Positions 3,828 to 58,443 of a stretch of DNA of 63,205 bases are shown here, one piece after another. The DNA is taken from positions 1 through 63,205 of IMG/VR virus record IMGVR_UViG_3300025118_000012; one strand, written 5' to 3'. The number at the start of each line of letters is the position of its first letter. The first letter of the stretch is position 1. Both the position numbers and the translations under genes were made by a program. Source of the stretch: a virus (taxonomy: Duplodnaviria > Caudoviricetes). Under the pieces are notes generated by a model, which saw only the letters and a list, made by a program, of their open reading frames with translations, was not told the origin of the DNA and searched no databases.

Positions 3828-4630
3828 TGCCATTCGAATCAGAAAAACAAAGACGATATATGCATGCTAATCACCCTGAAATCGCAAAAAAATGGACTAA
3901 TAAATATGGAAGAAGAGCAGCTACAGGTAAAATAATGGTTAAAGAAAATAAAAAAAAGAAAAAATTCATACCCGATTATTTAAAGAAAAAAATTAAAGGA
4001 ACTACAATTGGGGGTGGTTTTAATATAGGCGATGATGAGTGGGCAACAACACCAAGCGGAAGTTTAAAACTAGGAAAAGGTAATAAAACAGCAAACATAA
4101 GTATTTCAAAACCTTTTAGTAAAGTAGATAAAAGCAATATAAATAGCACAATAGGACTTGATTTTACAAAAGAAGGGAAAAATTCTTCATTAACTATTGG
4201 TGGAAGTAAAACCGGAAAATCAAAAAATTTTGGAATTTCCTTAACAAAAACTTTTACTAAAGGTGGTGGTGCTGATATGGGTAAGCACAGTCTTTCAGGA
4301 AGAGATGTAAAAATGTTAGGTAAAAAAGGCACAGAAAAATTAATGGAAGCAAGAGGTAAAGTAATTGATTTAGGCACTCCAGAAGGAGAAGCTCATTTAA
4401 GAAAGCATAACCCAGGTTTAACTTACGAATCAAGATATTTACCACCTTGGACAATTATACCAAAGAAAAAACCTAAATATAAAGCAGAGCCTTACACACC
4501 AGGTAAGAAAAAACCTAAATATAAAGCAGAGCCTTACATACCAGGTAAGAATAAAGGTAAGTATAAAAAATTAAATAAAAATACTGGCGGATTTATATCT
4601 ATTAGTGAATACGTTGAAGATATTGTATAA
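3827..4630 (+). CDS. Basic modular protein, candidate virion cargo
   Basis: MPFESEKQRRYMHAN N-module, beta-strand-rich middle, motifs AATGKIM, FTKGGGA and KNTGGFI. Confidence 0.7.
   Translation: MPFESEKQRRYMHANHPEIAKKWTNKYGRRAATGKIMVKENKKKKKFIPDYLKKKIKGTTIGGGFNIGDDEWATTPSGSLKLGKGNKTANISISKPFSKVDKSNINSTIGLDFTKEGKNSSLTIGGSKTGKSKNFGISLTKTFTKGGGADMGKHSLSGRDVKMLGKKGTEKLMEARGKVIDLGTPEGEAHLRKHNPGLTYESRYLPPWTIIPKKKPKYKAEPYTPGKKKPKYKAEPYIPGKNKGKYKKLNKNTGGFISISEYVEDIV
4463..4551 (+). repeat. 42-bp tandem repeat (2 copies plus partial) encoding KKKPKYKAEPYxPG
   Basis: Units 4463-4504 and 4505-4546 differ at one base. Confidence 0.95.
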
Positions 4631-44839: not shown

Positions 44840-46704
44840 CACATCAATTAAATTTTATATACAACGACAGTGATTGGGTCTGCCCCCCGGAGTATCCAGA
44901 TTTATCTCAAGCAAAAGAAATAGCAATTGACCTAGAAACCAAAGATCCAAATATTAAAACAAAAGGCCCAGGTTGGGCAACTTTTGATGGTGCTATAGTT
45001 GGTTTTGCAGTAGCTGCCTTTGATCAGCAATGGTATTTTCCAATTCAACATGACGCAGGTGGTAATATGGATCTTGCGATTACTACTGCATGGATGCAAG
45101 ACATACTTAACACTCCTGCAACTAAAATTTTTCACAATGCAAGTTATGATGTCGGTTGGTTAAAGATAAATGGTTTTAATATTAATGGACCAATTGTAGA
45201 TACAATGATTGCAGCAGCTTTGATTAATGAAAATAGATTTAGTTTTGCATTAAATTCTTGTGCTAAAGATTATCTTGGTGAAATTAAAAATGAAACTTTT
45301 TTAAATGAAAAAGCAAAAGAATGGGGAATTGATCCTAAAGCAGACTTATGGAAACTACCCGCAGGTTATGTAGGATTCTATGCTGAACAAGACGCAGGTC
45401 TAACTTTACGTTTATGGCAGCGTTTTAAAACAGAAATTTCTAAACAAAGTTTAAATGATGTGTGGGAAATGGAGATGGAGCTGCTACCTATTTTAATAGA
45501 TACTAGAATGAGAGGAATAAGAGTTGACGAAGAGAAAGCTTCACTTCTTAAAAAAGAATTTAAAAGTAAAGAGTCTGAGGTATTAAATAAAATTAAAAAA
45601 GAAACCAGTTTAAATGTGGACATTTGGGCTGCAAGATCTGTAGCGCAGGTGTTTGATAGAATAGGTGTTGACTACCCACGGACACCGAAAAGTGATGAGC
45701 CTAGCTTTACCCAAAATTGGTTAGTAAACTGTGATAACCCGATAGCGCAACTAATAAGACAAGCAAGAGAAATAAATAAATTCCATTCCACATTTATAGA
45801 CTCAATTCAACGTTATGCTCACAAAGGCAGAATACATTCTGAAATAAATCAATTAAGATCTGATCAAGGTGGAACTGTTTCTGGAAGACTTTCATATTCA
45901 AATCCTAATTTACAACAAATTCCAGCAAGAAACAAAGAATACGGAGATAAAATTAGAAGTTTATTTTTACCTGAAGAAGGTAAACAATGGGGTTCTTTTG
46001 ATTACAGCCAACAGGAGCCTAGACTTGTAGCTCATTATGCTGCAAGTGTTGATCAACAATTTACAGGAGCAGATGAATTTATAGATGCTTATAAAAATGA
46101 AGCTGCCGATTTCCACCAAATCGTGGCAGATATGGCAGAAATAAGTAGAACTCATGCTAAAACAATTAACCTTGGTTTATTCTATGGTATGGGTAAAGCT
46201 AAATTAGCTAGAGAATTGGGTATTTCTAAAGACAAGGCAGAAGCCCTTTTAAATCAATACAATTCTAGAGTCCCATTTGTTAAAAGATTAGCTACAGAAG
46301 TCACTAATTCTGCTTCAAAATATGGCTTTATTCGAACAATAAGGGGTCGTAAATGCCGATTTGACATGTGGGAGCCTGCTACCTTCGGAATGAATAAGGC
46401 AATGCAATATGAAGAGGCTAAGGCAATTTATGGAAATAATATAAGAAGAGCCTTTACTTATAAGGCTTTAAATAGATTAATCCAAGGATCAGCAGCAGAT
46501 CAGACTAAACAAGCTATGATAAATTGTTATAAACAGGAATATCAACCCATCCTACAAATTCATGATGAATTGTGCTTTTCTATAAATGACGAAAGTGATA
46601 TAGTGGGGGTGAAGGAGGTAATGGAAAATGCCATCGAAAATCTCAAAGTCCCCTTCAAGGTTGACGTTGCACTCGGAAGAAGTTGGGGCGAAGCAAAAGA
46701 GTAA
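44836..46704 (+). CDS. polA: Family A DNA polymerase with 3'-5' exonuclease
   Basis: DLET, FHNASYD, GRLSYSNPNLQQIP, DYSQQEPR, RTHAKTINLGLFYG, QIHDEL. Confidence 0.96.
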   Translation: MTHQLNFIYNDSDWVCPPEYPDLSQAKEIAIDLETKDPNIKTKGPGWATFDGAIVGFAVAAFDQQWYFPIQHDAGGNMDLAITTAWMQDILNTPATKIFHNASYDVGWLKINGFNINGPIVDTMIAAALINENRFSFALNSCAKDYLGEIKNETFLNEKAKEWGIDPKADLWKLPAGYVGFYAEQDAGLTLRLWQRFKTEISKQSLNDVWEMEMELLPILIDTRMRGIRVDEEKASLLKKEFKSKESEVLNKIKKETSLNVDIWAARSVAQVFDRIGVDYPRTPKSDEPSFTQNWLVNCDNPIAQLIRQAREINKFHSTFIDSIQRYAHKGRIHSEINQLRSDQGGTVSGRLSYSNPNLQQIPARNKEYGDKIRSLFLPEEGKQWGSFDYSQQEPRLVAHYAASVDQQFTGADEFIDAYKNEAADFHQIVADMAEISRTHAKTINLGLFYGMGKAKLARELGISKDKAEALLNQYNSRVPFVKRLATEVTNSASKYGFIRTIRGRKCRFDMWEPATFGMNKAMQYEEAKAIYGNNIRRAFTYKALNRLIQGSAADQTKQAMINCYKQEYQPILQIHDELCFSINDESDIVGVKEVMENAIENLKVPFKVDVALGRSWGEAKE

Positions 46705-46846
46705 AGATATAGTTTGTAAAAGGTGTAAGGACACCGGACAAATAGAAACTTGGCACGATGCTTCAGAAAAACGTAAAATTATTTCTGACTGTCCTGTTTG
46801 TCCTCCTCAAATAAATCTTTTTCATCTTCGGGCTGCTGGTCTTTAA
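46628..46846 (+). CDS. Small zinc-ribbon protein (start uncertain)
   Basis: CKRCKDTG...CPVC. Confidence 0.5.
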   Translation: MPSKISKSPSRLTLHSEEVGAKQKSKDIVCKRCKDTGQIETWHDASEKRKIISDCPVCPPQINLFHLRAAGL

Positions 46847-46910
46847 TAAATTCTTCCCGAATTTTTCTTAGTTCTTTATAGTGGTTTGGGTGTTTCCATT
46901 CAAACGTCAT
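46779..46910 (-). CDS. 43-aa hypothetical protein (not in ORF track)
   Basis: AGGAGAG RBS; MTFEWKHPNHYKELRKIREEF... Confidence 0.6.
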   Translation of the reverse strand: MTFEWKHPNHYKELRKIREEFIKDQQPEDEKDLFEEDKQDSQK

Positions 46911-47098
46911 ATGCTCTCCTTGTTTTTTTTATAACCTATTATAACATGAGCACTTTTTTGAAATCCTCCAGAAGTTAGTAAAACAATTTTTCTAAAAAAA
47001 TTATTTAGTAGTACCAATGTGTATAAAATTAAAAAAATGTTTTTTCGGAAAATTTAGAGCGCACTATCCTTAAGGAAAAAATTAATTTTTTGGGCTAC

Positions 47099-47275
47099 TT
47101 AACTTGCTATGCTAAACTTTTTACTTTGTTCAACAGCATTGTCTATTTGCTTCTTTAGGTCACCTATTCTTATTGCAGTCCATTTCATTTCTTCTTCATG
47201 ACCTTCAGCAGCTTGCTTCGCCCATTTGTGTTCCAAGTTCAATTTGTCCTGAACTACTTGTTGTAACGTTGACAT
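47099..47275 (-). CDS. Hypothetical helical protein
   Basis: GGAGG RBS before MSTLQQVVQDKLNLEHKWA. Confidence 0.65.
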   Translation of the reverse strand: MSTLQQVVQDKLNLEHKWAKQAAEGHEEEMKWTAIRIGDLKKQIDNAVEQSKKFSIAS

Positions 47276-47465
47276 CTTTTTTATCAACCTCCTCAAATGT
47301 AAGAAACACTTTGTAGGGTTCGTAGAACCCTTCATCGGTTCCTTCTATTGCCCCTGATTCTACTTCTGTAGCAAATTTGTCAAGAGCAGCCCTATCGCTC
47401 TCCGCCTCTATTATCTTATTAAGATACATATTTTTGTATCTTGCTTGGATGCGATAAAGCTTCAT
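47205..47465 (-). CDS. Hypothetical protein
   Basis: MKLYRIQARYK...IEAE; same-strand cluster. Confidence 0.65.
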   Translation of the reverse strand: MKLYRIQARYKNMYLNKIIEAESDRAALDKFATEVESGAIEGTDEGFYEPYKVFLTFEEVDKKDVNVTTSSSGQIELGTQMGEASC

Positions 47466-47500
47466 GTAGTATTATATATCAAAATAAGTGCACATTGCAA

Positions 47501-47782
47501 CTATGTGGACACTTTTGGTTTAGGTGAGGGAATTATTAATTTTGGCGGTTTTGGTAGGTTTACGGGCTTACATTCAAATTTTATTACTAATTTTTCACGT
47601 TCTACGTGTTTCCTATCTATTTCTTCTGTCTGTTCTAGCCCTTTAAAAGTATTATGGGCCACTCTATAACCTGTCACTACGCAGTCATAATGATTATCGA
47701 ACGTATATCCTGGAATGGAACTAAATGGGCACATTCCTGTGATTGTGCTACAAAGATACATAATTAATACAAATTTTGTCAT
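47501..47782 (-). CDS. Secreted/membrane-type Cys-containing protein
   Basis: KFVLIMYLCS...C...C...GY...IKFEC; AGGA RBS. Confidence 0.7.
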   Translation of the reverse strand: MTKFVLIMYLCSTITGMCPFSSIPGYTFDNHYDCVVTGYRVAHNTFKGLEQTEEIDRKHVEREKLVIKFECKPVNLPKPPKLIIPSPKPKVST

Positions 47783-47785
47783 AAA

Positions 47786-47842
47786 ATCCTATATTATCCT
47801 ATTGTATTTTTTCCTTGCATATCCCACGAAAATGTTTATATA
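47786..47842 (+). promoter_or_regulatory. Divergent promoter region with tandem ATCCTAT boxes
   Basis: ATCCTAT at 47786 and 47796, ATCCCAC at 47821, TTGCAT 47815 and TATATA 47837. Confidence 0.6.
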
Positions 47843-47884
47843 CAGTTCATGTTTTTTAAAAATAATAACAACAAAGAGGATACC

Positions 47885-48196
47885 ATGAAAACAGATGGAA
47901 AAGAAGAAGCGATAACTGTACAAGAAAAGCAGTTAATCACTGAGAAGATAGGCGAAGCTTTGGTTTTAAAACCCGATTGGGAAATTAAACCTAAGAGCGT
48001 TGCTATGACTCATATCTTTTCAGTTGAATTTAATGAGTCAACTAAAGAACTACAACTGGTGGTCAATAATGAAGTTTATGAAACTCTCAGATGTAAAGAT
48101 ATACTTAATGGTAAAATTAAATTTCATAATGGTTTAAATGAAATCATTTCTAAATTTAATTTGTGGAGGTATGATGAGCCAAAATCCAAAAACTAA
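47885..48196 (+). CDS. Hypothetical protein
   Basis: AACAAAGAGG leader before MKTDGKEE. Confidence 0.7.
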   Translation: MKTDGKEEAITVQEKQLITEKIGEALVLKPDWEIKPKSVAMTHIFSVEFNESTKELQLVVNNEVYETLRCKDILNGKIKFHNGLNEIISKFNLWRYDEPKSKN

Positions 48197-48443
48197 ATCA
48201 TCGTCAACAGTATTCTTGGAATGGATAGATGAAATGAATAAAATTTTATCTGAAGTTCCGATGAATAATATAAGTGGTGAAATGGTAGAATATTCCGATC
48301 ACGAATGGCAAAAGGCAATGAAGCAACTTCAACAGTGCTCAATGAAATTTGAGGACATGCCTATTTACCCAATCAACGAAGAGATCGCAAATAGACTAGT
48401 CGCAGACCACTTGAAAGGTAAGGATGAGCAACCAGATCATTAG
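48171..48443 (+). CDS. Hypothetical acidic protein
   Basis: GGAGG RBS before ATG 48171. Confidence 0.65.
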   Translation: MMSQNPKTKSSSTVFLEWIDEMNKILSEVPMNNISGEMVEYSDHEWQKAMKQLQQCSMKFEDMPIYPINEEIANRLVADHLKGKDEQPDH

Positions 48444-48531
48444 TTTTTTATTCTTACTTTTATTAATAGTATTACCAGCAAAACTTGTATTAGCAATTTT
48501 TGGATTACTGGTATACACAATCTTGTTTTAA
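48424..48531 (+). CDS. 35-aa hydrophobic peptide (not in ORF track)
   Basis: MSNQIISFLFLLLLIVLPAKLVLAIFGLLVYTILF. Confidence 0.55.
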   Translation: MSNQIISFLFLLLLIVLPAKLVLAIFGLLVYTILF

Positions 48532-48546
48532 CCAAGGAGGGAAAAG

Positions 48547-49332
48547 ATGGCAAGAGCAGTAAATAATAAATTTTTTGAAACTAGAGATTACTCTATATTC
48601 AAAAAAGTCCGAGGCAATAGACCTGTGGATGAAGCACACGTTAAGCAATTAAAAAAATTAATTGCTGATAAAGATCTAATGGATCCTATACGTGTAAATC
48701 AAAATAAAGAGGTAGTGGATGGTCAACATACATTACAAGCGAGAAAGGAATTAGGTTTACTTGTTCCTTACATCATAATTAATTCTGATGATCCGCTTGA
48801 TGTAGCAAGACTTAACCAAGGTAGAAAAAATTGGTCGATGGAACATTTTTTACATCACCATTGTTCTAGAGGCAAAATGGATTACAAAATTTGTAAATCT
48901 AAAATGCAACAGTATGGTCTACCTGTGTCTGAAACAATAATTTTATTGTTGAAGATAACCTCAAAATGGAGAACGATTCACGATCAATTCAAACAAGGGG
49001 AATTTAAAATTCCTGCAGGTGGAATTTCACATTGTGATAGAATAGGTGATCAATTAATGGCTCTTAAAAAATATCTTCTTGGTATGGATAATACTAATAG
49101 AAGAGTTAAGAGACAAATGGTAACTGCTTATATTATAGCAGATAGACACCCGGAGTTTAGTTACGATAGATTTAAAAATGCTATTAAAACTAAATCAGCA
49201 TGGTTGATGACTGGAACATCAGCACGTGATTATATTCAAATTTTTCAGAAAATATATAACTCTGGTTTAAAGCCCAATAGAAGAATTAATCTTCTTGATT
49301 TCTTTGATACTAGACAATATACCGAAGAATAA
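48547..49332 (+). CDS. ParB/Srx N-terminal-domain protein
   Basis: GNRPV, PIRV, VDGQHTLQA. Confidence 0.8.
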   Translation: MARAVNNKFFETRDYSIFKKVRGNRPVDEAHVKQLKKLIADKDLMDPIRVNQNKEVVDGQHTLQARKELGLLVPYIIINSDDPLDVARLNQGRKNWSMEHFLHHHCSRGKMDYKICKSKMQQYGLPVSETIILLLKITSKWRTIHDQFKQGEFKIPAGGISHCDRIGDQLMALKKYLLGMDNTNRRVKRQMVTAYIIADRHPEFSYDRFKNAIKTKSAWLMTGTSARDYIQIFQKIYNSGLKPNRRINLLDFFDTRQYTEE

Positions 49333-49341
49333 GGAGACACA

Positions 49342-49557
49342 ATGGATATCACTAAATGGAAATCTTGTGCGGTTGATATTGAATCATACATTCTAATAAG
49401 AGCGATGGGAAAGGCAGGTTTTAGAAGACCTGGAAGTATGATCGCTAAATTAGTTGATGAAGAAGTAAAGAAGATAGCTAAAAAAGAGGGTAAGAGTTAT
49501 CAATCAATGAAAGAGAATTTGCTATCTCAAGGTAAGAAGCTCTTGAATGGTAAGTAG
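49342..49557 (+). CDS. Ribbon-helix-helix-like transcription regulator
   Basis: WKSCAV strand followed by two helices (SYILIRAMG; GSMIAKLVDEE). Confidence 0.6.
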   Translation: MDITKWKSCAVDIESYILIRAMGKAGFRRPGSMIAKLVDEEVKKIAKKEGKSYQSMKENLLSQGKKLLNGK

Positions 49558-49597
49558 ACCTGCAGGTTGGATGGTTAACCTTTAATCTGGGGTTGAG

Positions 49598-49624
49598 AAG
49601 GGCCGGGAGACTGGCCCTTTTTTT
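49598..49624 (+). terminator. Rho-independent terminator
   Basis: aagggccgg-gaga-ctggccctt plus T run. Confidence 0.9.
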
Positions 49625-49634
49625 CTTGCAATAT

Positions 49635-49658
49635 AATATTTGACATAGATCAAATATT
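49635..49658. promoter_or_regulatory. Palindromic operator over a TTGACA box
   Basis: AATATTTGA-N6-TCAAATATT; TTGACA at 49640-45. Confidence 0.6.
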
Positions 49659-49681
49659 TTTATATTCACAATACATACGTA

Positions 49682-49724
49682 TTCATAAGCCTAAAATGAA
49701 AAGGTGAGGCTTTCAAAACACCTT
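49682..49724 (+). ncRNA. Candidate pseudoknotted leader RNA
   Basis: ttcat/atgaa, aaggtg/cacctt, loop-loop aagcct/aggctt. Confidence 0.45.
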
Positions 49725-49774
49725 ATTTCCAATTAACAACGAACACTAAAATTAACTTTTAAAAAGGAGATTTA

Positions 49775-50017
49775 GTGGGTAAAAAAGCTACAAAAGGTAG
49801 CCCAGAAGCATTAGAACAAGCACTACAAAAGCTTGTAATGTTGTGTCCGAATAAGCAAACTTATGACGAGATGACCAGTTTAATGTTTCAGTTGTACTGT
49901 GGAAATGACTTTGGCTTAGGAAATTTTAGTTTAGCATTTCTTGATAAAATCGAGAAATGTTGGCAATCAGGTAGAAAAAAGGCCGCTTCGGCTAAAGGTT
50001 TAAGACTGGTTGTCTAA
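49775..50017 (+). CDS. Hypothetical protein
   Basis: AAGGAG RBS, GTG start. Confidence 0.7.
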   Translation: MGKKATKGSPEALEQALQKLVMLCPNKQTYDEMTSLMFQLYCGNDFGLGNFSLAFLDKIEKCWQSGRKKAASAKGLRLVV

Positions 50018-50020
50018 AAT

Positions 50021-50074
50021 GTGTAGCCAAGGTGTAATTCCACATCTATATCTTTTCCCACATCTTGGCTATGC
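50021..50074 (+). ncRNA. Stem-loop with loop antisense to translation starts
   Basis: 15-bp stem with three G-U pairs; 24-nt loop aattccacatctatatcttttccc. Confidence 0.55.
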
Positions 50075-50271
50075 TGATGTATTTATTTGATAAAACTTAT
50101 ATAAGAGCCTCAATTAATTTTTGCAAAACTTTGGATGGTCCCGGTCGTGTGGGCTTTATCTCTGAAGTTCTTGAAGATTATTATATTAGCGTAGAAAAGA
50201 AATCTCCAGCACTTGTTCAAAGGAGGTTTCGTGAGTTATACGCCGAACTTATTAAAAATTTTGGGCACTAG
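50065..50271 (+). CDS. Hypothetical protein (start uncertain)
   Basis: 68-aa ORF filling the operon gap. Confidence 0.55.
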   Translation: MAMLMYLFDKTYIRASINFCKTLDGPGRVGFISEVLEDYYISVEKKSPALVQRRFRELYAELIKNFGH

Positions 50272-50641
50272 CATGTCTGCTCAAATTTTAAAAGAAGATA
50301 AATCACCTGAACAGAAATTATTTCAGGCTATAGTCCTCCAGGCGTTTGAAGATGTTTTGACGACTCATGGGAATAAGCAAGATTCTTATCTTAAAAAAGA
50401 TGCTCATGATTGGTTTTTAAATAAAAATAATCGCTTTAATGATATTTGTTGGTATGCAGGTTTTGATCCAGAAATTATAAATGAAAAATATAAAAAATTA
50501 TTAGCTGAAGGTAAAATTAAATTTACTCGACTCCAGGAGGCGTGGATAGAATATAGAAATTTATATAAAAATTATAGAGCTGCTAAAACTTCTGTTGAGA
50601 GAAGAAACATTATGATTAAAATTTGTAGAATAAAAAAATAG
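50213..50641 (+). CDS. Hypothetical protein (true start probably later)
   Basis: EQKLFQAIVLQAFED...DAHDWF...ICWYAGFDP. Confidence 0.7.
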   Translation: MFKGGFVSYTPNLLKILGTSMSAQILKEDKSPEQKLFQAIVLQAFEDVLTTHGNKQDSYLKKDAHDWFLNKNNRFNDICWYAGFDPEIINEKYKKLLAEGKIKFTRLQEAWIEYRNLYKNYRAAKTSVERRNIMIKICRIKK

Positions 50642-50818
50642 TTACCATTTTCTAACGGGACAGTAAGATCTTTCTAATCTTACTTTTAAACGCATTACAC
50701 ATCCACATTTAAGGCATAGACCTATTTTATAAAATGGACAAGTACGGCAGTGGTTGATTCTTTTTTTAATTGTGGAGTGGTTTGCTAGGATAGGTTTTTT
50801 TCGTGGTTTGGTAGTCAT
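50642..50818 (-). CDS. 58-aa Cys-rich protein, DUF6171-like (not in ORF track)
   Basis: RINHCRTCPFYKIGLCLKCGCVMRLKVRLERSYCPVRKW. Confidence 0.75.
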   Translation of the reverse strand: MTTKPRKKPILANHSTIKKRINHCRTCPFYKIGLCLKCGCVMRLKVRLERSYCPVRKW

Positions 50819-50990
50819 GGTGGCCTGAATGTTAATCTAATAAACCGGTGCAATCTTTTTTTAATGTAAGGGACCCTTGGGGGAAGTTCTAAAGAGCTTT
50901 GATGACTAAAAACCCCCAAAGGTTCCGATACTTTTAAGTAAGTGCTAATTAACACATAATAAGTATATCACAACACCGGATACCGGACAA

Positions 50991-51518
50991 TTAATTTGTA
51001 TAGTTGATGTTTAGGACTATCCTACATTTACTGTCTGTGGTATTTGTGCCACAATGTTTCATCTGAGAGTTGAAGGTAATTAATCTATTGGCTTTTGAGT
51101 ATATTTTTGTGCCATCTTCAAATTTTGTATACCCATTATTGGTATTTATATAAAAAGCTGAGGTTTTGCAGTCATCTGGGACATCAACATGTAGATCTGA
51201 TTCATGTAATTTAGCTGAACCAGTAGTCATATTAAGCTTTAATCTATATAATAGTTTGACATTTAATTTTTGCAAAATTGGCTTAACAATATCAAAATAT
51301 CTAGACGCTATTTCTTTATCATCGTAGGTTTTGAATACATGTGTAAATTGGAATGATTCTAAAATAGGATCATCCCATTTGGGATCACCATCTTGATTGT
51401 AATTTATATATTTGTTAAAAAACCACGGAAAATGAGCACCTTCTAGGTCTTCAACCACCACATCAAAGATTCTTTTGTCTAAAAAATTGTCCTCCTGAGT
51501 GTATCCAAGTATTTCCAT
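50991..51518 (-). CDS. 2OG-Fe(II) oxygenase (FPW...NNGYT.FE subfamily)
   Basis: HVD, NNGYTKFE, KHCG, RIVLNIN. Confidence 0.85.
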   Translation of the reverse strand: MEILGYTQEDNFLDKRIFDVVVEDLEGAHFPWFFNKYINYNQDGDPKWDDPILESFQFTHVFKTYDDKEIASRYFDIVKPILQKLNVKLLYRLKLNMTTGSAKLHESDLHVDVPDDCKTSAFYINTNNGYTKFEDGTKIYSKANRLITFNSQMKHCGTNTTDSKCRIVLNINYTN

Positions 51519-51581
51519 AAATTTTACTATATAGATATTCTAGACACCTGACTAATAAAAAGTACCCCAGGGGGTCAAACA

Positions 51582-51687
51582 GGTGTCCCTGGTGTCCCTG
51601 ATACACTATTAATCAATAATATCAATGCTTTTAATCAATTTTAATGGTGTCCCTGTGGTGTCCCCGTGGTGTCCCTAGGGACACCAC
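51582..51687. repeat. Iteron-like GGTGTCCC array, putative replication origin
   Basis: Five direct copies plus one inverted copy around an AT-rich ATCAAT core; 22-bp perfect palindrome 51666-51687. Confidence 0.75.
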
Positions 51688-51760
51688 TCTTGCGGGAACG
51701 CAATCAAAACAATTTCAGGTAGTTACTTTGTGATGAAATAATCTATATAATAAAAAAACT

Positions 51761-52216
51761 ATGATGAAAAAATTAGAAATGTCCAAACTGATATTTAAGA
51801 CCGCTAAAGAGCAGTTTAGAAAACTATATAAAAAACATAAATCTGAGGTGAGGCACACCAAAAAAACAAAAGGGGCTATTCCAACTGTTCCATATCAACT
51901 TAAGAAAGCTGATGTAAAAAGAAAAATAAGAGGAACTAAATTTACTGCTAAAGCTGACATAAAAGCTAAACCAGGTTTAAGACGTAGAATCTTACTTAAA
52001 ATTGAAAGAGATAAGCGAGCTAAAACTAAACATAAAGGTCCTGTTATTTATGGTAAAGGTTGGGCATCCGACAGAGCAGGTAAGACTATGCAAATTCCTG
52101 CAATGACATTTAAAGCTAGAAAGCAAATGAAAAAAGAAATGGCAGTAGCTGCTGAGAAAGGTTATAAGAGAATTAGGTTTAAAAAATTCGGATATAAAAA
52201 AGGTAGTTATGTATAA
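51761..52216 (+). CDS. Highly basic hypothetical protein
   Basis: Lys-rich, ends GYKKGSYV. Confidence 0.65.
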   Translation: MMKKLEMSKLIFKTAKEQFRKLYKKHKSEVRHTKKTKGAIPTVPYQLKKADVKRKIRGTKFTAKADIKAKPGLRRRILLKIERDKRAKTKHKGPVIYGKGWASDRAGKTMQIPAMTFKARKQMKKEMAVAAEKGYKRIRFKKFGYKKGSYV

Positions 52217-52427
52217 AAAAATGTTGTTAGGTGGTTTGTTAACCAAAGGTATTAAAGAAAGTTATAAGGCTTATAGAAAAGCTGGTGGTAGAAGTATTAT
52301 TGAAATTATGAAATCTGGTGTACGAGGTGCTGGTAAAAGAAAAGATGCAAAACTTGATATTAAACATGGTATCAAAGTACATGGTGGTAGACATTTAACA
52401 AAAAGAGATTTGGCAAAATTAAGATAA
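52209..52427 (+). CDS. Basic hypothetical protein
   Basis: MYKKMLLGGLL start; overlaps the previous gene. Confidence 0.65.
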   Translation: MYKKMLLGGLLTKGIKESYKAYRKAGGRSIIEIMKSGVRGAGKRKDAKLDIKHGIKVHGGRHLTKRDLAKLR

Positions 52428-52534
52428 TGTTTTGGGTTTGGCATTTGGTGGCAATTACATCTATAATATCAATTTCATTCATAATAGGATACAGCTATGG
52501 GTCTAAAGAAAAAAGAATTAAGAACAGTAGATGA
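52427..52534 (+). CDS. 35-aa membrane peptide (not in ORF track)
   Basis: TAATG coupling; MFWVWHLVAITSIISISFIIGYSYG. Confidence 0.5.
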   Translation: MFWVWHLVAITSIISISFIIGYSYGSKEKRIKNSR

Positions 52535-53021
52535 TTTAACTCCCAAACAAAGAATGTTTGTGGAAATTTACGTAAAAGACTGGGGAAGCATTACTCAAGC
52601 GGAAGCTTTAAAACGCGCTGGATATGTTTGTAAAAATGAGAATGACTATAGTGCAATCGCTTCTAGATTATTATCCAGAAGATTAAATCCACACGTTGCA
52701 AAATATTTTGATAAACGATTTGAAAAAGAAATAAAAATGTATGAGGGAGATAACCTCAGACGGTTTAAACGATTTGAAAGACTTGCTGATAAAGCTGAGA
52801 ATAAGGAGCAATTTGCTGCTGCTATTAATGCTGAATATAGATCAGGTCAATTAGCGGGTTCTTTTATTGATAGAAAAGAAGTTAGAGTAACCGGACTGGA
52901 GGGTATGTCACGTGAAGAACTTGAAAACAAGTTACAAGAGCTATCGCAGAAGATCGATGGGCATAATGCCAAAACGATCCAAGCTGAGCCCACAGACATT
53001 AAAGAAATTAAAAACAGTTAG
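52497..53021 (+). CDS. terS: Terminase small subunit
   Basis: LTPKQRMFVEIY...ALKRAGY...ASRLL...PHV HTH pattern; AAAINAE..G. Confidence 0.85.
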   Translation: MGLKKKELRTVDDLTPKQRMFVEIYVKDWGSITQAEALKRAGYVCKNENDYSAIASRLLSRRLNPHVAKYFDKRFEKEIKMYEGDNLRRFKRFERLADKAENKEQFAAAINAEYRSGQLAGSFIDRKEVRVTGLEGMSREELENKLQELSQKIDGHNAKTIQAEPTDIKEIKNS

Positions 53022-53104
53022 TTGGTCTGAGTGGATAAAAGTATTCAACAGTGTCCACAACTCAACTATGTTTACCTCCGTAGGAATGGTGAAGGTAGAT
53101 ATTG

Positions 53105-53404
53105 ATGAGACATAAGAAAAAAATTGTAATTAATAAAAAGGCCAAACATTGGAAGGATAGATTTCCTTTGGTAGAGGTTACATGGGTTGATATTTGTAGT
53201 GATTCAGCGTGGCAAAGTATAGATACTTTAAATAAAGCACAACTACCTAATTGTGTGACTAAAGGGCATTTACTAACTCAAAAAAATGGTGTTACTAGGT
53301 TGTTTGGAGACTACTCCGAGAATAAAGAAGGAGAGATTGACGAAATAGGAAATAGTACTATTATTCCCAACAACGTGATTAAAAAAATTCAAAAACTGAT
53401 CTAA
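53105..53404 (+). CDS. Phage hypothetical protein
   Basis: VEVTWVDI...W...CVTKGHL...TIIP. Confidence 0.7.
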   Translation: MRHKKKIVINKKAKHWKDRFPLVEVTWVDICSDSAWQSIDTLNKAQLPNCVTKGHLLTQKNGVTRLFGDYSENKEGEIDEIGNSTIIPNNVIKKIQKLI

Positions 53405-53805
53405 TGCCACGTAGTATAAACCAAGAGAGTTTATTGTGGCAAAGAACTAAAAAAGGACTGACTGATTGTTACTTAACCCGCATAGAAACTAGCACAATCA
53501 ATGGTGTACCTGATATTCATGGAGTACATAAACAAGGTGTTTTTTGGATAGAATTAAAATCAGATCAACTCAATTATCCCAAACTAAATAAGTGGCAGAT
53601 AGTATGGATAAATAAATATATTAAAGCTGGTGGTAAAGTATTTATCTTGAAAGAGACCCTCTCGAAGAGGTCTCTTAGACTGTACAGACCGGTGTCCCGG
53701 TTCACCGAACCTCGGGAACTGAAACCTCGGTTTGAGTTCTCGGTTCCTTTTAAATGGCCGGCGATCCAGGAAGCACTGGTGAGCTCCCTCCAGGAGGCAG
53801 CGTGA
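53404..53805 (+). CDS. VRR-NUC / Holliday junction resolvase-like nuclease
   Basis: ESLLW, RIE, GVPD, FWIELK, QIVW, GGKVFIL. Confidence 0.85.
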   Translation: MPRSINQESLLWQRTKKGLTDCYLTRIETSTINGVPDIHGVHKQGVFWIELKSDQLNYPKLNKWQIVWINKYIKAGGKVFILKETLSKRSLRLYRPVSRFTEPRELKPRFEFSVPFKWPAIQEALVSSLQEAA

Positions 53806-53903
53806 TCTCGTTCTCGTTGGCATTTCTCGTTGACAAACCTCGCTCGTTAAGGAAGACCGGACCATCCAGGCCGTCTTCAGCAGCTGGGTCTGGATCCTGA
53901 AGC

Positions 53904-53971
53904 TCGTGTCGTTTCCCGCCCTCGTTTTATTTCCCTCTTTGTTAGTTTAACGGGGGCAGGTGACGACACGA
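53904..53971 (+). ncRNA. Long stem-loop with anti-Shine-Dalgarno loop
   Basis: 23-position stem (2 mismatches, 2 G-U); loop ttatttccctctttgttagttt. Confidence 0.6.
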
Positions 53972-54002
53972 ATGGGGCAGCGTGAGGCTGTCGTTTTAGC
54001 TA

Positions 54003-54031
54003 TTGACAAATCTCCCATGATATCTTATATA
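54003..54031 (+). promoter_or_regulatory. Sigma70-type promoter with tandem heptamer boxes
   Basis: TTGACA-N17-TATATA; CTCCCAT 54012 and ATCTTAT 54022. Confidence 0.7.
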
Positions 54032-54037
54032 GACAAT

Positions 54038-54243
54038 GCCTCGTTGTGGCTGGTCCATTGGAAAATGATATATGGAAACCAAGATGTAGCCACGGGATCG
54101 CAAAGTCCCTAGGAACCAGACTTTGGACGCAACGTGGAACGAACTGAAGGGAAGAGTAGTTAACTATAAAACAGGGATCTTCTTCATTAGCTTCATTAGG
54201 TGAGGTTAGAGGCGAGCCACTAGGTTAAACGAAGGTGCGCCTC
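54038..54243 (+). ncRNA. Candidate ~200-nt structured non-coding RNA
   Basis: Starts 7 nt after the -10 box, no ORF, at least four helices. Confidence 0.55.
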
Positions 54244-54486
54244 GATCCTCGTTCTCGTTTGAAAATCAATCATCTCGTTCTCGTTTATAAGGATAGCACT
54301 GGGGTCTGCAGCGTACTTCAGCTTCCTTCCCCCCCTGAAGCACAGTACCTTCTCTTCGCTCTCGTTTTTGGTAAGGAAAAAGAAAGGTTTTGTATCTCGT
54401 TTAAGACTGGGATCTCCGGGCACTGGTGGTAATGATGACCATTAGGGTCTCCAGAGCTGCTGGAAAAAAGAATTCAAAAAAAGGAC

Positions 54487-54515
54487 TTGACATTTATCTT
54501 ATCGTGTCTTATGTA
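54487..54515 (+). promoter_or_regulatory. Sigma70-type promoter with tandem heptamer boxes
   Basis: TTGACA-N17-TATGTA; ATCTTAT 54496 and GTCTTAT 54506. Confidence 0.7.
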
Positions 54516-54605
54516 ATGTCTGGCCTGTAACGCTGGCACATTAACAAGTCGCCTATGTAACAAACGAAAGGGTGGTGCAGGCTTAACTAACAAAAGGAGG
54601 AAAAG

Positions 54606-54791
54606 ATGAAGAATAAAGAATATCAAAAAGAGTTAGATGAAGCCATTCAGGAAACGGTACCACATAATGATATTGCGGAAGCTAACAACATACCACAAGC
54701 TGGTAAGGTTTATGCGTTAACCGGTGGCACCGGATCCAAATGCATTGCCAATGGAAATACATGGAAAGAGTCGGAGGTAAAAGATGGCTAG
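54606..54791 (+). CDS. Early-region hypothetical protein
   Basis: AGGAGG RBS; GKVYALTGG...CIANGNTW. Confidence 0.75.
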   Translation: MKNKEYQKELDEAIQETVPHNDIAEANNIPQAGKVYALTGGTGSKCIANGNTWKESEVKDG

Positions 54792-55293
54792 ACATTTAAT
54801 GACAAAGCAAAAACAATTGCTCGACAAACATAGATGGTGTAAAAAATGGCAGGATCTCCCGGACGAGGTTTACTTCTCGCTCGAACAACTCAATGATTTT
54901 GAAACCATTCAACATCACATTGATGACCACCTGCAGCGTAACTTCGATGCCGATGCCGTGAAGCCTGAAGAGGCAAAGCACATTTCGCACTGGTTGCAGC
55001 TCGGTGAGAAGGATGATCAGTTTCTCATCAAAGATATAGCTAAACACGGCTGCGCCGGTGGCGTGCCAGGACTAGTCTACTATCGTGAGACAGGGTCGTT
55101 TTACAATGATTTCCATCTGGAGATCTGGCTAATGATTGGGGATTACGCAGCGGACGCTGGGCAGAAGACTGGTCACTTTTTAGGGGCTATCGTGAAGGAT
55201 GCCTCGTCTCGTGCTCAGTTCAAGAATGCATTGGTTTGGTGGGCCGTTGAGGTACGAGCCCAGGAGCTGCTGGAGAAAAGGAATGCCGCTTGA
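54784..55293 (+). CDS. Early-region hypothetical protein
   Basis: GGAGG RBS; DIAKHGCAGGVPGLVYYRETGSFY; LVWWAVE. Confidence 0.75.
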   Translation: MARHLMTKQKQLLDKHRWCKKWQDLPDEVYFSLEQLNDFETIQHHIDDHLQRNFDADAVKPEEAKHISHWLQLGEKDDQFLIKDIAKHGCAGGVPGLVYYRETGSFYNDFHLEIWLMIGDYAADAGQKTGHFLGAIVKDASSRAQFKNALVWWAVEVRAQELLEKRNAA

Positions 55294-55391
55294 CAATTGC
55301 CTCTATCTACATACTATTGCTCTTACTATGGCCTGAAGGGATGTTAGTCATTACTGGCATCCTAATTCTCGTTTTGACTGGAATGTTCTAG
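55290..55391 (+). CDS. 33-aa hydrophobic peptide (TTG start, not in ORF track)
   Basis: LTIASIYILLLLLWPEGMLVITGILILVLTGMF; overlaps the previous stop. Confidence 0.45.
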   Translation: MTIASIYILLLLLWPEGMLVITGILILVLTGMF

Positions 55392-55666
55392 CTCGTTCTC
55401 GTTTAAGAAAGAACTGGGACCAGCTGCCCGTACTCAAAGGACGGGGATCTGCAGCACACACAGTACCTTCTCCTCGCTCGTTTGATAAGGAAATGCTAAT
55501 GGGACTAGACTTTAATGAGCTTCCCCCCTCCAGTAGCGTAGCTGATGGCAGATGTCGCTCGTTGGGTAAAGAAATTGTTTAGTTTAGAATAGTTCTAAAG
55601 AGTTCCCGCGCCTCCAGTTCTTCCCTGACGCTTCAGATGTCCATGCACTTGTGCATGAATTAATGC

Positions 55667-55720
55667 TTGCACTACTGCATGGGATTTGATAAGAGTTGTC
55701 AACGACACTTATGTCGTTGA
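55667..55720 (+). promoter_or_regulatory. Promoter with tandem boxes and 5' hairpin
   Basis: TTGCAC-N17-TAAGAG; ATGGGAT 55679 and ATAAGAG 55689; tcaacgaca/tgtcgttga hairpin. Confidence 0.6.
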
Positions 55721-55745
55721 AAAAAACTAAACAAGGAGAAAAGTT

Positions 55746-56153
55746 ATGGGACTAGATATGTATGCTTATCGTCATAAAGGCGAGATGCTAACAGACGAAG
55801 ATAGAAAAAAACAAGACGAGTTGCCAGAAGATAGAAAGCCAATTCAATTTGCCGATTGGAGAAAGCACAACAGACTACAAGGTTTTATGCAAGAACTTTG
55901 GGATAAGCAAACAGGATACACAGGTGATTTTAATTGTACACCTCTCTATCTCGGTAAAGAAGAGTTTGACATGTTAGAGAAACAAATTGAAACTCGCACA
56001 CTTCCACAAACAGGTGGATTCTTCTTTGGTCAAGACAGCTACACTTGGGAAGGTGAGCAGGAAGATATGAAAGCCTACGATTTAAAATTTTGTAAGGAAG
56101 CAAAACAATGGATAGAGAAAGGATACAAAGTATTTTATGAGTGTTGGTGGTAA
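55746..56153 (+). CDS. Phage protein of the MGLD...WRK...GFFFG type, function unknown
   Basis: MGLDMY, WRKHNRLQ, GFFFG, YECWW; AAGGAG RBS. Confidence 0.8.
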   Translation: MGLDMYAYRHKGEMLTDEDRKKQDELPEDRKPIQFADWRKHNRLQGFMQELWDKQTGYTGDFNCTPLYLGKEEFDMLEKQIETRTLPQTGGFFFGQDSYTWEGEQEDMKAYDLKFCKEAKQWIEKGYKVFYECWW

Positions 56154-56382
56154 AGATAAAAAGAGCGAGACGACTGATGTCGTCTCGTTTCGCTCGGAGT
56201 TAGAGTGTCGTAAGGAACAAAGAGAAAAAGATGCACGACTGCACCAAGACCAAGCAACTAAGCAAGTTGAGAAATTAGTTAAAGAATTAGAAGCTGTAAT
56301 GGGTGAGGGTGTACAACTAGAAGTTGAGCCAAATGTTAGTAGTTTTATTGATAAACCTATTGAGAAAAAAAAGTTAAATTAA
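56137..56382 (+). CDS. Hypothetical protein
   Basis: Overlaps the previous gene; charged helical sequence. Confidence 0.55.
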   Translation: MSVGGKDKKSETTDVVSFRSELECRKEQREKDARLHQDQATKQVEKLVKELEAVMGEGVQLEVEPNVSSFIDKPIEKKKLN

Positions 56383-56395
56383 TTGAAAATAACTC

Positions 56396-56446
56396 TTGTA
56401 ATAAGATTTGATAAGATATAAAAGAGTTGGGCAATCATAAGATTGT
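56396..56446 (+). promoter_or_regulatory. Promoter with tandem ATAAGAT boxes
   Basis: ATAAGAT at 56401, 56411 and 56437; TTGTAA 56396; TGnTAAGAT extended -10. Confidence 0.6.
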
Positions 56447-56467
56447 AAACTTAACAAAGAGGTCAAT

Positions 56468-56794
56468 ATGACAAACGCGGTAAAAAAGCTAAAGCAAGAT
56501 GAGAAAAAAGTTGTTCTTGCTTATGCTCAATTAAAGCTAAGAGCAAATAGACTATCTAAAGAGTTAGACACAATGAAACAAAATGTTGTTAGTGTGTTTG
56601 ATAGATCAAATCAAAACTTAATCATTGTTCAAGATGAGCATGGCAATAGTTTTGGAATACAAAAAATAAATCGTAAGAGAAAAAAGTTTGAGACAGCAAA
56701 CTTTAAGATTGCTCATAATGATTTATTCAATCAGTTCTGCACCGAATTAGAATATGCAGAATATAAAGCGATTGGTGGTACTGATGACAAATAG
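56468..56794 (+). CDS. Early-region hypothetical protein
   Basis: TAACAAAGAGG leader; coiled coil then FETANFK..H.DLF. Confidence 0.75.
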   Translation: MTNAVKKLKQDEKKVVLAYAQLKLRANRLSKELDTMKQNVVSVFDRSNQNLIIVQDEHGNSFGIQKINRKRKKFETANFKIAHNDLFNQFCTELEYAEYKAIGGTDDK

Positions 56795-57038
56795 TCTAAT
56801 CAATATTGCTCAAACATTAACAGAGCGAGTAAGCAATACTACACAACCAACTCAACTATCAGATATGTATCTTGATGTAGCTGGTAAGAAACAATTAAAC
56901 TATGAGATAATGTTTCAGTTATTAATGGGAGAGTGTGAGAAACATATACTAGAAAATCATGGCAACCCTGTTGTTGATGAATTTAGAGATAGTATATTAA
57001 CTAAGTTCTCAACTCTAGTTAGTTCATTAACTAAGTAA
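56784..57038 (+). CDS. Early-region hypothetical protein
   Basis: GGTGG RBS before MTNSLINIA; LNYEIMFQLL. Confidence 0.7.
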   Translation: MTNSLINIAQTLTERVSNTTQPTQLSDMYLDVAGKKQLNYEIMFQLLMGECEKHILENHGNPVVDEFRDSILTKFSTLVSSLTK

Positions 57039-57055
57039 TTAATCATACATAGAAA

Positions 57056-57140
57056 CCTATAGCGCGTCTGCGCTATAGGTGCGTCTGCACTATAGAAGGC
57101 TCTTAAAATCAAACGACTTAAAACGAAGCGCCTGCGCTTC
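57056..57140. repeat. Cluster of GC hairpins at the early/late boundary
   Basis: cctatagcgc-gtct-gcgctatagg, an overlapping second gtct hairpin, and gaagcg-cctg-cgcttc. Confidence 0.7.
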
Positions 57141-57223
57141 AGGATCACGTTAAAAGACGTGGCTTTTCCCCTCGAAGAGGTTTACAAAGCAAGATATACA
57201 AATATACTAGGGTCCCAAACGGT

Positions 57224-57955
57224 ATGAATTTTAAAATAAAAAATTTTTCTAAAAAATTAACGTTTTATAGTTTAATTGAAGGTATTGAATATATAATGCC
57301 TATTATACCCAGTAAAGATTACAAGCACCCTTGGTTACAAAAAGCCATTGTAAATATTAAAAAAGATCAAAGTGTTCTAAGATGCCCAGGTATACTTAAA
57401 ATTAGAAATGAAGGTTGGATTGTAAGAGCATGGCAAGACATTAAAATTAAGGTTGAAGGCTCTGAATTCTCTTGGACCACACCTTTAGATCAACGAGAAC
57501 TATACACACATTTACCAGCAGATGCTTTAGGGTGGCATGACGAATCACGATTATTTGATTATTTTGAAAATTGGCCAAAAGATTCTCTATCTAAAATAAT
57601 TAAAATAAATGTACCTTGGTCGGTGGACGTTCCTAAAGGTTATATCTTACATCAGTTCCATCCTGCTTATTTAGATGAAAATAGGTTTACTACACTTCCT
57701 GGAATGTATACGTCAGATACAGGTTTAAATACTTTAAATGTTCCAATTATTTTACATATGAATAAAGGTGAAGTTTTAATCAAGGCTGGTACACCAATAG
57801 CACAACTAGTATTATATAAAAAAGAAAGTATACAACATGAAAATGTATTGGCTTGCACAAGTAAAAAATTTTTAAAAAAAGAAAGATTAACTTATTTATT
57901 GTTAAATATGAGATTTAAAAAACTATATAATAAAATAAAGGATTTTTGGAAATGA
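57224..57955 (+). CDS. DUF6065-like / dUTPase-fold protein
   Basis: RCPGI...GWIVRAWQD, KINVPW...PKGY, IKAGTPIAQL. Confidence 0.65.
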   Translation: MNFKIKNFSKKLTFYSLIEGIEYIMPIIPSKDYKHPWLQKAIVNIKKDQSVLRCPGILKIRNEGWIVRAWQDIKIKVEGSEFSWTTPLDQRELYTHLPADALGWHDESRLFDYFENWPKDSLSKIIKINVPWSVDVPKGYILHQFHPAYLDENRFTTLPGMYTSDTGLNTLNVPIILHMNKGEVLIKAGTPIAQLVLYKKESIQHENVLACTSKKFLKKERLTYLLLNMRFKKLYNKIKDFWK

Positions 57956-58443
57956 GTTATAAAATAGTAGATAACTTTATAGAGGACCCAAAAGTATTTA
58001 ACATTATTACAGAAAAACTTTTTAGTGATGCCTTTCCTTGGTACTATAGTGATAATGTAGCGTACTCAGGAGAAAATAATAAAAGTTTTTATTTTGTGCA
58101 TAATTTTTTTAGAGATGGTAAACAACAAAGTGATTGGATGGATATAATGCACCCGGTGTTAGGAAGACTACAGTTCAACCACTTGTTACATATACGTGCA
58201 AATTGTTATACTAATGTGACTGAACCTCTTACGCACGACTATCACGTTGATAGACATACTCCGCATAAGGTTGCTTTGTATAGTCTTAATGACAACAATG
58301 GGTACACTCAATTTGAGAAAACAGAAGAGAAGGTTCAGTCTGTTAGAAACAGATTATTATTGTTTGATGGAGAGGATACACATAGAAGTACTACACAAAC
58401 AGATGAAAATTTAAGGATTAATATAAATATTAACTATGTATAA
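57946..58443 (+). CDS. 2OG-Fe(II) oxygenase (FPW...NNGYT.FE subfamily)
   Basis: HVD, NNGYTQFE, THRS, RINININY. Confidence 0.85.
   Translation: MEMSYKIVDNFIEDPKVFNIITEKLFSDAFPWYYSDNVAYSGENNKSFYFVHNFFRDGKQQSDWMDIMHPVLGRLQFNHLLHIRANCYTNVTEPLTHDYHVDRHTPHKVALYSLNDNNGYTQFEKTEEKVQSVRNRLLLFDGEDTHRSTTQTDENLRINININYV

Follow-up and report, generated by a model that had tools for sequence, protein, structure and literature searches.

A conserved hairpin of HTVC023P-type pelagiphages, most likely a new antisense RNA controlling translation of the phage's own genes

In the phage genome analysed here, a gap of 800 nt without a called gene lies between the terS operon and a set of small genes that run to terL. 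The first-pass annotation read a hairpin in this gap as a later-expressed antisense RNA, its loop being complementary to ribosome-binding leaders of early genes. The locus thus raises the question whether the hairpin works as an RNA at all, on which strand, and whether the leaders are what its loop recognises.

The window (the whole stretch of DNA that was analysed) comprises 63,205 bases and is a complete linear virus record of IMG/VR, whose completeness CheckV estimates at 100%. Its G+C content is about 34% (about 44% in the 54-56 kb bin), and the + strand carries almost all genes. Its large terminase shares 69% identity with the terminase of Pelagibacter phage HTVC023P and 63% with the HTVC027P one, and the window was therefore assigned to the HTVC023P-type pelagiphages. 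The gap and its surroundings are composed as follows.

52497-53021, terS, left of the gap
Left of the gap, with terS and the 133-aa gene: a 100-aa gene
53404-53805, + strand, 133-aa gene, PD-(D/E)XK nuclease-like (Hjc / VRR-NUC), matching PHROG 2165 and 93
53806-54605, the 800-nt gap without a called gene that holds the hairpin
53805-53848, + strand, CTCGTT-box array just past the stop of the 133-aa gene, 55 nt before the hairpin
53904-53971, + strand, conserved RNA hairpin (folds, covariance model, covariation, G-U bias)
53927-53948, + strand, hairpin loop UUAUUUCCCUCUUUGUUAGUUU, anti-leader sequence (alignments; unpaired in MFE and centroid folds)
Right of the gap, running to terL at 58436: small genes with unassigned functions

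The match of the 133-aa gene to Pfam Hjc (E 0.0021) is under the Pfam cut-off. Two genes paralogous to each other, at 50991-51518 (- strand) and 57946-58443 (+ strand), match PHROG 274 ('DNA endonuclease V') with E values of 3e-45 and 1e-40, the second immediately preceding terL, and 48547-49332 holds a ParB-like gene. Repeats of the form GGTGTCCC(T/C), about five of them direct and one inverted (GGGACACC), cluster at 51560-51690, in the intergenic region from which the minus-strand gene 50991-51518 and gene 51761 diverge; they may serve as an origin, in partition or in the binding of a regulator. No tRNA or tmRNA was found by scanning.

Exact coordinates, the 22-nt loop and the long stem were all recovered by folding and repeat search, and the position downstream of the terS operon agreed with the terS coordinates. 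In the repeat search the arms lie at 53904-53926 and 53949-53971, 22 nt apart; the stem of about 21 bp consists of three segments with two fixed interruptions. Folded as + strand RNA, the hairpin reached -35.6 kcal/mol (z -6.64; 0 of 200 shuffles as good), compared with -31.5 kcal/mol (z -5.66) for the - strand and -16.6 kcal/mol (z -4.8) for DNA. The + strand fold contains two U-G pairs and is the more stable one, in line with the earlier remark that two G-U pairs favour this strand.

Related loci were collected with the 133-aa protein, which has 156 relatives in IMG/VR; the best 80 loci of the 156 were kept. When the gap was compared with these loci by blastn, the block with the hairpin was among those conserved well beyond the closest relatives; blastn of 53400-54700 against GenBank phages gave no match. 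A covariance model was built from 49 aligned hairpin copies. It scored the window hairpin at 87.7 bits (E 1.5e-19) and matched the window and 79 of the 80 related loci (the best 80 of 156), each time on the + strand. The sole locus without the hairpin (L013) stops 5 nt past the 133-aa gene. This gene is the constant upstream neighbour of the hairpin, which starts about 95-105 nt past it (five loci, coordinates compared by hand), and one hairpin place per record was seen in five related records, of which two have a completeness of 90% or more. No match to the model was obtained in the whole genomes of cultured HTVC023P and HTVC027P.

Fifty-six distinct hairpin sequences were available for the analysis of base pairing. 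Standard pairs were found in 97.3% of stem cells (84.0% after shuffling) and a compensatory change in 10 of 15 stem pairs. The stem covariation score was 0.457 versus 0.197 for shuffled alignments, with 0 of 500 shuffles reaching 0.457, and it fell to 0.135 or below in a control in which the stem partner was slid by 1-3 columns. Among 840 stem cells, 92 were G-U and 3 were C-A, which corresponds to G-U on the opposite strand; hence the structure is selected in the + strand, and the wobble frequency points to RNA. The + strand fold was also the more stable one in 45 of 47 distinct stem-loops (means of -29.1 kcal/mol for + and -23.1 kcal/mol for -).

Several simpler identities were considered for this element. 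An intrinsic (Rho-independent) terminator was ruled out, because a T-tract (at least 4 T within 10 nt past the stem) is present in 0 of the 56 distinct hairpins; the terminator scan of the window does not list the hairpin, and the loop measures 22-28 nt in homologues, compared with 3-8 nt in usual terminators. A live minus-strand leader or small ORF was rejected as well, since 47 of the 56 sequences have no suitably spaced minus-strand start codon and loop lengths vary by non-multiples of 3. The decayed minus-strand leader that had been offered as the alternative to an antisense RNA thus fails as a present function, given compensatory stems in 56 distinct sequences; as the hairpin's origin, to judge by the sequence, it may still apply. 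No family was found by Rfam cmscan of 46000-58000 (E up to 1) or of 53780-54620 (E up to 10), the only rows being sub-threshold chance matches (microRNA, snoRNA, lncRNA). A sigma-70 promoter of its own is not claimed for the hairpin: the candidate TTGACA in the box array at 53829 is followed by no conserved -10, and neither an own promoter nor an own terminator was evident in the scan of the window and in the relatives' flanks.

The repeated CTCGTT boxes form arrays at 53805-53848, 54246-54285, 54360-54401 and 55367-55403, all in one orientation, and do likewise in most related loci. TCTCGTT occurs in 14 copies in the window versus 4.8 expected, 11 of them on the + strand between 53806 and 56189, and positions 53824-53848 are identical (25/25) in several relatives. 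The boxes often read GCAGCGTGA-TCTCGTTCTCGTT and are then followed by a TATAAGGATAG-like sequence. In nearly all relatives they flank the hairpin, and they lie roughly at least 100 nt upstream of conserved promoters. Their role might be that of factor-dependent promoters, of sites for protein binding or of sites for Rho loading. The earlier proposal of heptamer-box promoters ahead of the target genes fits 54606 and 55746 (TCTCGTT at 53806-54401 and 55367-55403), but 47885 has no box nearby and the box at 56183 is inside the ORF 56137-56382. In the equivalent gap of HTVC023P (3930-4075), three copies of ATTGAGA(A/T)TAACAACGAAA replace the hairpin and the CTCGTT boxes, and the next gene after that gap keeps a AACTAACAAAGGAG leader.

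A second hairpin at 50021-50072, directly past the stop of gene 49775-50017, has a 15-bp stem, a 24-nt pyrimidine-rich loop and a fold energy of -20.1 kcal/mol. The suggested link between the two hairpins found no support: among the 14 best duplex partners of the 50021 loop in the window, none was one of the leaders discussed here.

Contigs from two marine metatranscriptome runs (one study, contigs only, small shares) cover 54038-54200 and do not cover the hairpin, a gap that is not evidence in either direction. A near-perfect sigma-70-like promoter, TTGACA (54003-54008) and TATATA (54026-54031) at 17 nt spacing, precedes this 163-nt stretch, which is the only part of 53400-54800 under such contigs; one contig of 166 nt spans it with 0 differences, and in the other run the depth reaches about 120. 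L003-L006 carry the stretch with 100% identity and L007 with 99.4%, compared with 84-86% for the flanking gap, and the next relatives (L008-L010) lack it as a block. The fold of the stretch is unremarkable (z -0.24) and it has no Rfam match. It is likely an abundant small RNA cassette.

The loop of the hairpin, which includes the stretch CUUUGUUAG, was still unpaired when folded in a 232-nt context. The first-pass annotation had made conservation of the loop a point to be checked; in relatives the core CUCUU(U/A)GUUAG is near-invariant, whereas the stems vary. The leader AACUAACAAAG(G)AGG corresponds to the reverse complement of this core. Duplex energies with the loop were ranked over the 93 + strand translation-initiation regions (TIRs) of the window, and the features concerned are listed here.

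47855-47887, + strand, TIR of 47885, first gene of a rightward operon; exact 10-mer at 47870-47879; rank 5 of 93
54487-54515, + strand, gene A promoter, sigma-70-like, TTGACA-17-TATGTA, of the conserved type CTTGACATNTATCCCATCAGGTCTTATGTAAG
54576-54608, + strand, TIR of gene A (54606-54791, 61 aa); leader AACTAACAAAAGGAGG with an exact 10-mer at 54585-54594; rank 4 of 93
55716-55748, + strand, TIR of gene B (55746-56153, 135 aa); -14.8 kcal/mol, rank 6 of 93
56438-56470, + strand, TIR of gene C (56468-56794, 108 aa); exact 11-mer at 56452-56462; -19.7 kcal/mol, rank 2 of 93

All three complementarities that had been reported were reproduced: an exact 11-mer TAACAAAGAGG at 56452-56462, an exact 10-mer at 47870-47879 (47869-47879 has 1 mismatch) and 10 nt at 100% between loop positions 53938-53947 and 54585-54594. 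In the ranking, the leaders named before took places 2 (56468), 4 (54606) and 5 (47885), and leaders that had not been named took places 1 (11934), 3 (48547) and 6 (55746). Within the window alone, the complementarity is weakly above chance and not significant: 11-mers with at most 1 mismatch gave 5 matches versus 2.37 expected, and 11 of 100 shuffles reached 5. The strength of the observation comes from the relatives, because hairpin, loop and leaders are all conserved there.

A strong sigma-70-like promoter precedes each of genes 47885, 54606, 55746 and 56468, which come first in their operons. For gene A, the 61-aa and 63-aa products were taken as homologous after visual comparison, and the leader in relatives is AACTAACAAAGGAGGATCTCGATGAAGCTC. 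In the shortest versions of its promoter, the spacing suggests that transcription would begin just before AACUAAC, which would place the motif at the mRNA 5' end. The gene A promoter is conserved past the -35 and -10 hexamers (window 54486-54517; for example L057 2180-2215 and L023 830-865), and its spacer TCCCAT recurs at the 47885-type promoter (TTGCATATCCCAT...TATATA); the shared spacer hints at an extra factor or operator. In the window, the gene B leader is degenerate (AAACTAAACAAGGAG), and the relatives carry AACTAACAAAGGAGAAAATATGGG. The 47885-type leader was found in two other genomes (ACTAACAAAGAGGT and AACTAACAAAGAGG), about 6 kb upstream of their hairpins. Among the predicted targets, gene C is conserved best: 65 loci retain both the gene and its TIR, the leader in relatives is (C)TTAACAAAGAGGTAAAAATG, and protein identity is 51-92%, mostly 75-92% (32 aligned copies). 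No Pfam or PHROG family was matched by its product, and hits in the ESM Atlas were to hypothetical viral clusters only. An AlphaFold model of the gene C protein (pLDDT 79, pTM 0.51) gave no PDB match at E<=0.001, the best being 0.34. Genes A, B and C and their neighbours were not found by tblastn in the 8-10 kb stretches examined of HTVC023P and HTVC027P (10 kb of HTVC027P). With no hairpin in either whole genome and no module gene in these stretches, the cultured phages are unsuitable for a direct test.

In most loci, 2-4 of the genes downstream of the hairpin have AACTAACAAAGGAG or TAACAAAGAGGT 5-9 nt upstream of their ATG. For a statistical comparison, 57 non-redundant loci with at least 1.5 kb of downstream sequence were used together with composition-preserving shuffles of the loop. 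In 46 of the 57 loci, an ATG stands within 20 nt after a perfect site of 10 nt or more, versus 9% for shuffled loops; 11 loci had no perfect 10-nt site near an ATG. For gene C, the duplexes of all 43 distinct loop/TIR pairs ranged from -12.8 to -22.2 kcal/mol (mean -17.9), with a mean z of -4.4 against shuffled loops (range -6.0 to -1.5). The predicted duplexes cover the Shine-Dalgarno box and often extend to the start codon.

Co-variation between loop and leader, proposed as a further check, was seen in part. Own loop/TIR pairs were slightly more stable than cross pairs (-17.91 versus -17.09 kcal/mol), with 7 of 5000 permutations as good, although permutation figures overstate the significance because related sequences are not independent. 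Matched changes were found in L072/73/75 and in L066, where an extra U in the loop goes with an extra A in the leader, and in L050/51, where the loop UUUUUUAC goes with the leader GUAAAAAA. L078 has GUUGUUU with AAACAAC and was partly compensated by the energy test, and the window's own group is also among the compensated lineages. Among 21 double variants, however, 9 were not compensated, compared with 5 that were fully and 7 that were partly compensated. The common loop change of U to A (CUCUUAGUUAG) is matched in the leader only in L035. Differences between loop complement and TIR comprised 11 wobble, 7 anti-wobble and 56 transversion changes and show no clear wobble bias.

Taken together, we consider it most likely, with a probability of roughly 0.6, that the hairpin is a structured + strand RNA that pairs with the leaders and represses translation of a small regulon in trans. 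The first-pass annotation was upheld on comparative grounds as regards a strand-selected + strand RNA and a loop antisense to conserved shared leaders; the accumulation of this RNA, its pairing, the repression and its timing are inferred, and a late RNA that shuts off early genes is a plausible reading. The RNA would be made by HTVC023P-type pelagiphages of one large uncultured subclade, perhaps as the 3' part of the terS / nuclease transcript or from a start at the CTCGTT-box unit 53805-53848. A stem of about 21 bp would hold the loop of 22-28 nt open, and the loop core with its flanks would pair with the 5' leader and Shine-Dalgarno region of 47885, 54606, 55746 and 56468, up to the start codon. 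With the 30S binding site blocked in this way, three to four genes would be repressed at the level of translation, in trans; action in cis may also occur, on readthrough transcripts from the upstream terS / nuclease operon.

Reverse-complemented, the loop and the inner 5' arm can be aligned with about 25 nt of the gene C TIR, an ACG standing where the TIR has its ATG. This likeness suggests an origin by inverted duplication of a ribosome-binding region, and the hairpin probably arose in this way from a TIR. HTVC023P has four forward copies of the leader core, no reverse copy and no hairpin; the leader motif is therefore older than the hairpin or independent of it, with a function of its own. 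A bolder and tentative version of the proposal is that of a master anti-leader, in which one hairpin, born by inverted duplication of its target's ribosome-binding region, would silence all strong sigma-70 (presumably early) units once the terS / nuclease operon is transcribed, and in which the CTCGTT units may be factor-dependent promoters of the same circuit.

It is also conceivable, though unlikely, that the hairpin is a + strand RNA element with another job, and that its likeness to a TIR is a relic of inverted duplication kept for protein binding. An RNase III-type processing or stability site, an insulator, an unusual terminator, and a protein-binding or nut/put-like antitermination hairpin by the CTCGTT boxes would all belong here. 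A stem of about 21 bp has the size typical of RNase III substrates, and together with the two fixed interruptions and the intergenic position this geometry is compatible with such a substrate of the T7 early-region type, in which a duplex of about two helical turns with internal loops lies between cistrons. The constant placement of the hairpin between CTCGTT-box arrays and promoters, the TIR-like reverse complement with ACG for ATG and the partial co-variation of loop and leader fit the same reading. A loop kept for a protein need not track varying TIRs, however, and both the advantage of own over cross pairs (7/5000) and the matched indels argue for such tracking; the lack of a T-tract in all 56 hairpins speaks against an intrinsic terminator, and no Rfam family is known for the element from the searches above.

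A function at the DNA level appears more improbable still. The loop would then repeat, in inverted form, a double-stranded operator or promoter-proximal site to which a protein binds also at the transcription-start and leader regions of the targets, or the hairpin would form in ssDNA as a replication priming or packaging signal near terS. Free but compensated stem variation, with about 11% G-U cells on one strand only, fits RNA far better than duplex DNA, and in ssDNA a G-T pair is destabilising, so that RNA fits better there too. The leader motif does begin at about +1 in the shortest promoters, a usual operator position, but where sequence is inserted it keeps to the Shine-Dalgarno box and not to the promoter (for example in L060 and L055), and its spacing to the ATG is fixed. 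The remaining points in favour are the fold of the hairpin as DNA, its position between terS and terL amid repeat arrays, and the weak wobble bias of the loop/TIR differences. Finally, the loop could pair with the leaders and yet activate or protect them, for example by shielding mRNA 5' ends from decay. The evidence from complementarity applies equally to this case, and the targets are 5'-terminal leaders; it is nevertheless very improbable, as the predicted duplexes span the Shine-Dalgarno box as far as the start codon, and in known systems a duplex over these elements blocks initiation.

Repression in trans by an antisense RNA is thus preferred. The hairpin represents a new unannotated RNA family in a very abundant SAR11-infecting phage group, and its covariance model can be used for annotating marine viromes. 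If the proposal is true, this would be the first regulatory RNA described for pelagiphages: among the titles listed, a literature search found no pelagiphage antisense RNA, and the pelagiphage papers searched make no mention of promoters, antisense or small RNAs, hairpins or intergenic elements. According to the accessible part of the HTVC027P transcriptome paper, HTVC027P has no RNA polymerase gene of its own and its early genes are functionally unassigned. The targets of the hairpin form a defined candidate set of early or host-takeover genes, and the loop/leader pair is cleanly testable. Temporal classes of the HTVC027P genes are reportedly given in the published Table S3.

Among known systems, the P1 C4 logic named in the first-pass annotation proved an apt likeness, with a loop-exposed antisense sequence directed at a ribosome-binding site downstream on the same strand. 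As described in the accessible part of the review PMC12197685, c4 of P1/P7 is a phage-encoded trans-acting antisense RNA whose loop sequences pair around the ribosome-binding site and block translation. In both cases the target is located downstream on the same strand. The hairpin differs from c4 in having one long stem, one large loop and one place per genome instead of two loop motifs, and its targets are several, dispersed and joined by a shared leader, whereas c4 targets one operon. Its phage is of lytic type with no evident immunity function, and no match to the Rfam C4 model was obtained in 53780-54620 (E up to 10). IS10 RNA-OUT carries its loop on a stable stem, and this loop pairs with the target mRNA at the 5'-terminal leader and ribosome-binding site; in the hairpin, too, a stem-presented loop would meet an mRNA 5' leader. 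RNA-OUT, however, is transcribed opposite its target and is fully complementary to it, whereas the hairpin is on the strand of its targets, 0.6-6 kb away, with imperfect pairing over 10-25 nt. The hairpin belongs to neither the C4 nor the IS10 RNA-OUT family.

Phages P22 and lambda use small antisense RNAs, sar and OOP respectively, to control how their own regulatory mRNAs are translated or how stable these are (PMC12197685, accessible part). Both sar and OOP are cis-antisense RNAs from the opposite strand in temperate phages, whereas the hairpin is on the same strand as its targets and does not overlap with them. A cis-antisense RNA of the IS10 RNA-OUT or P22 sar type was rejected for the hairpin, its structure being selected on the targets' strand and the pairing being distant and imperfect. 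In T4, RegB and RegA recognise early mRNAs via a shared feature of the ribosome-binding region and act in post-transcriptional shut-off. The hairpin resembles them in logic; the T4 regulators are proteins, and here the proposed recogniser is an RNA loop. What places the hairpin beside trans-encoded base-pairing RNAs is a conserved single-stranded seed that faces conserved TIRs (46/57 loci versus 9%; mean z -4.4).
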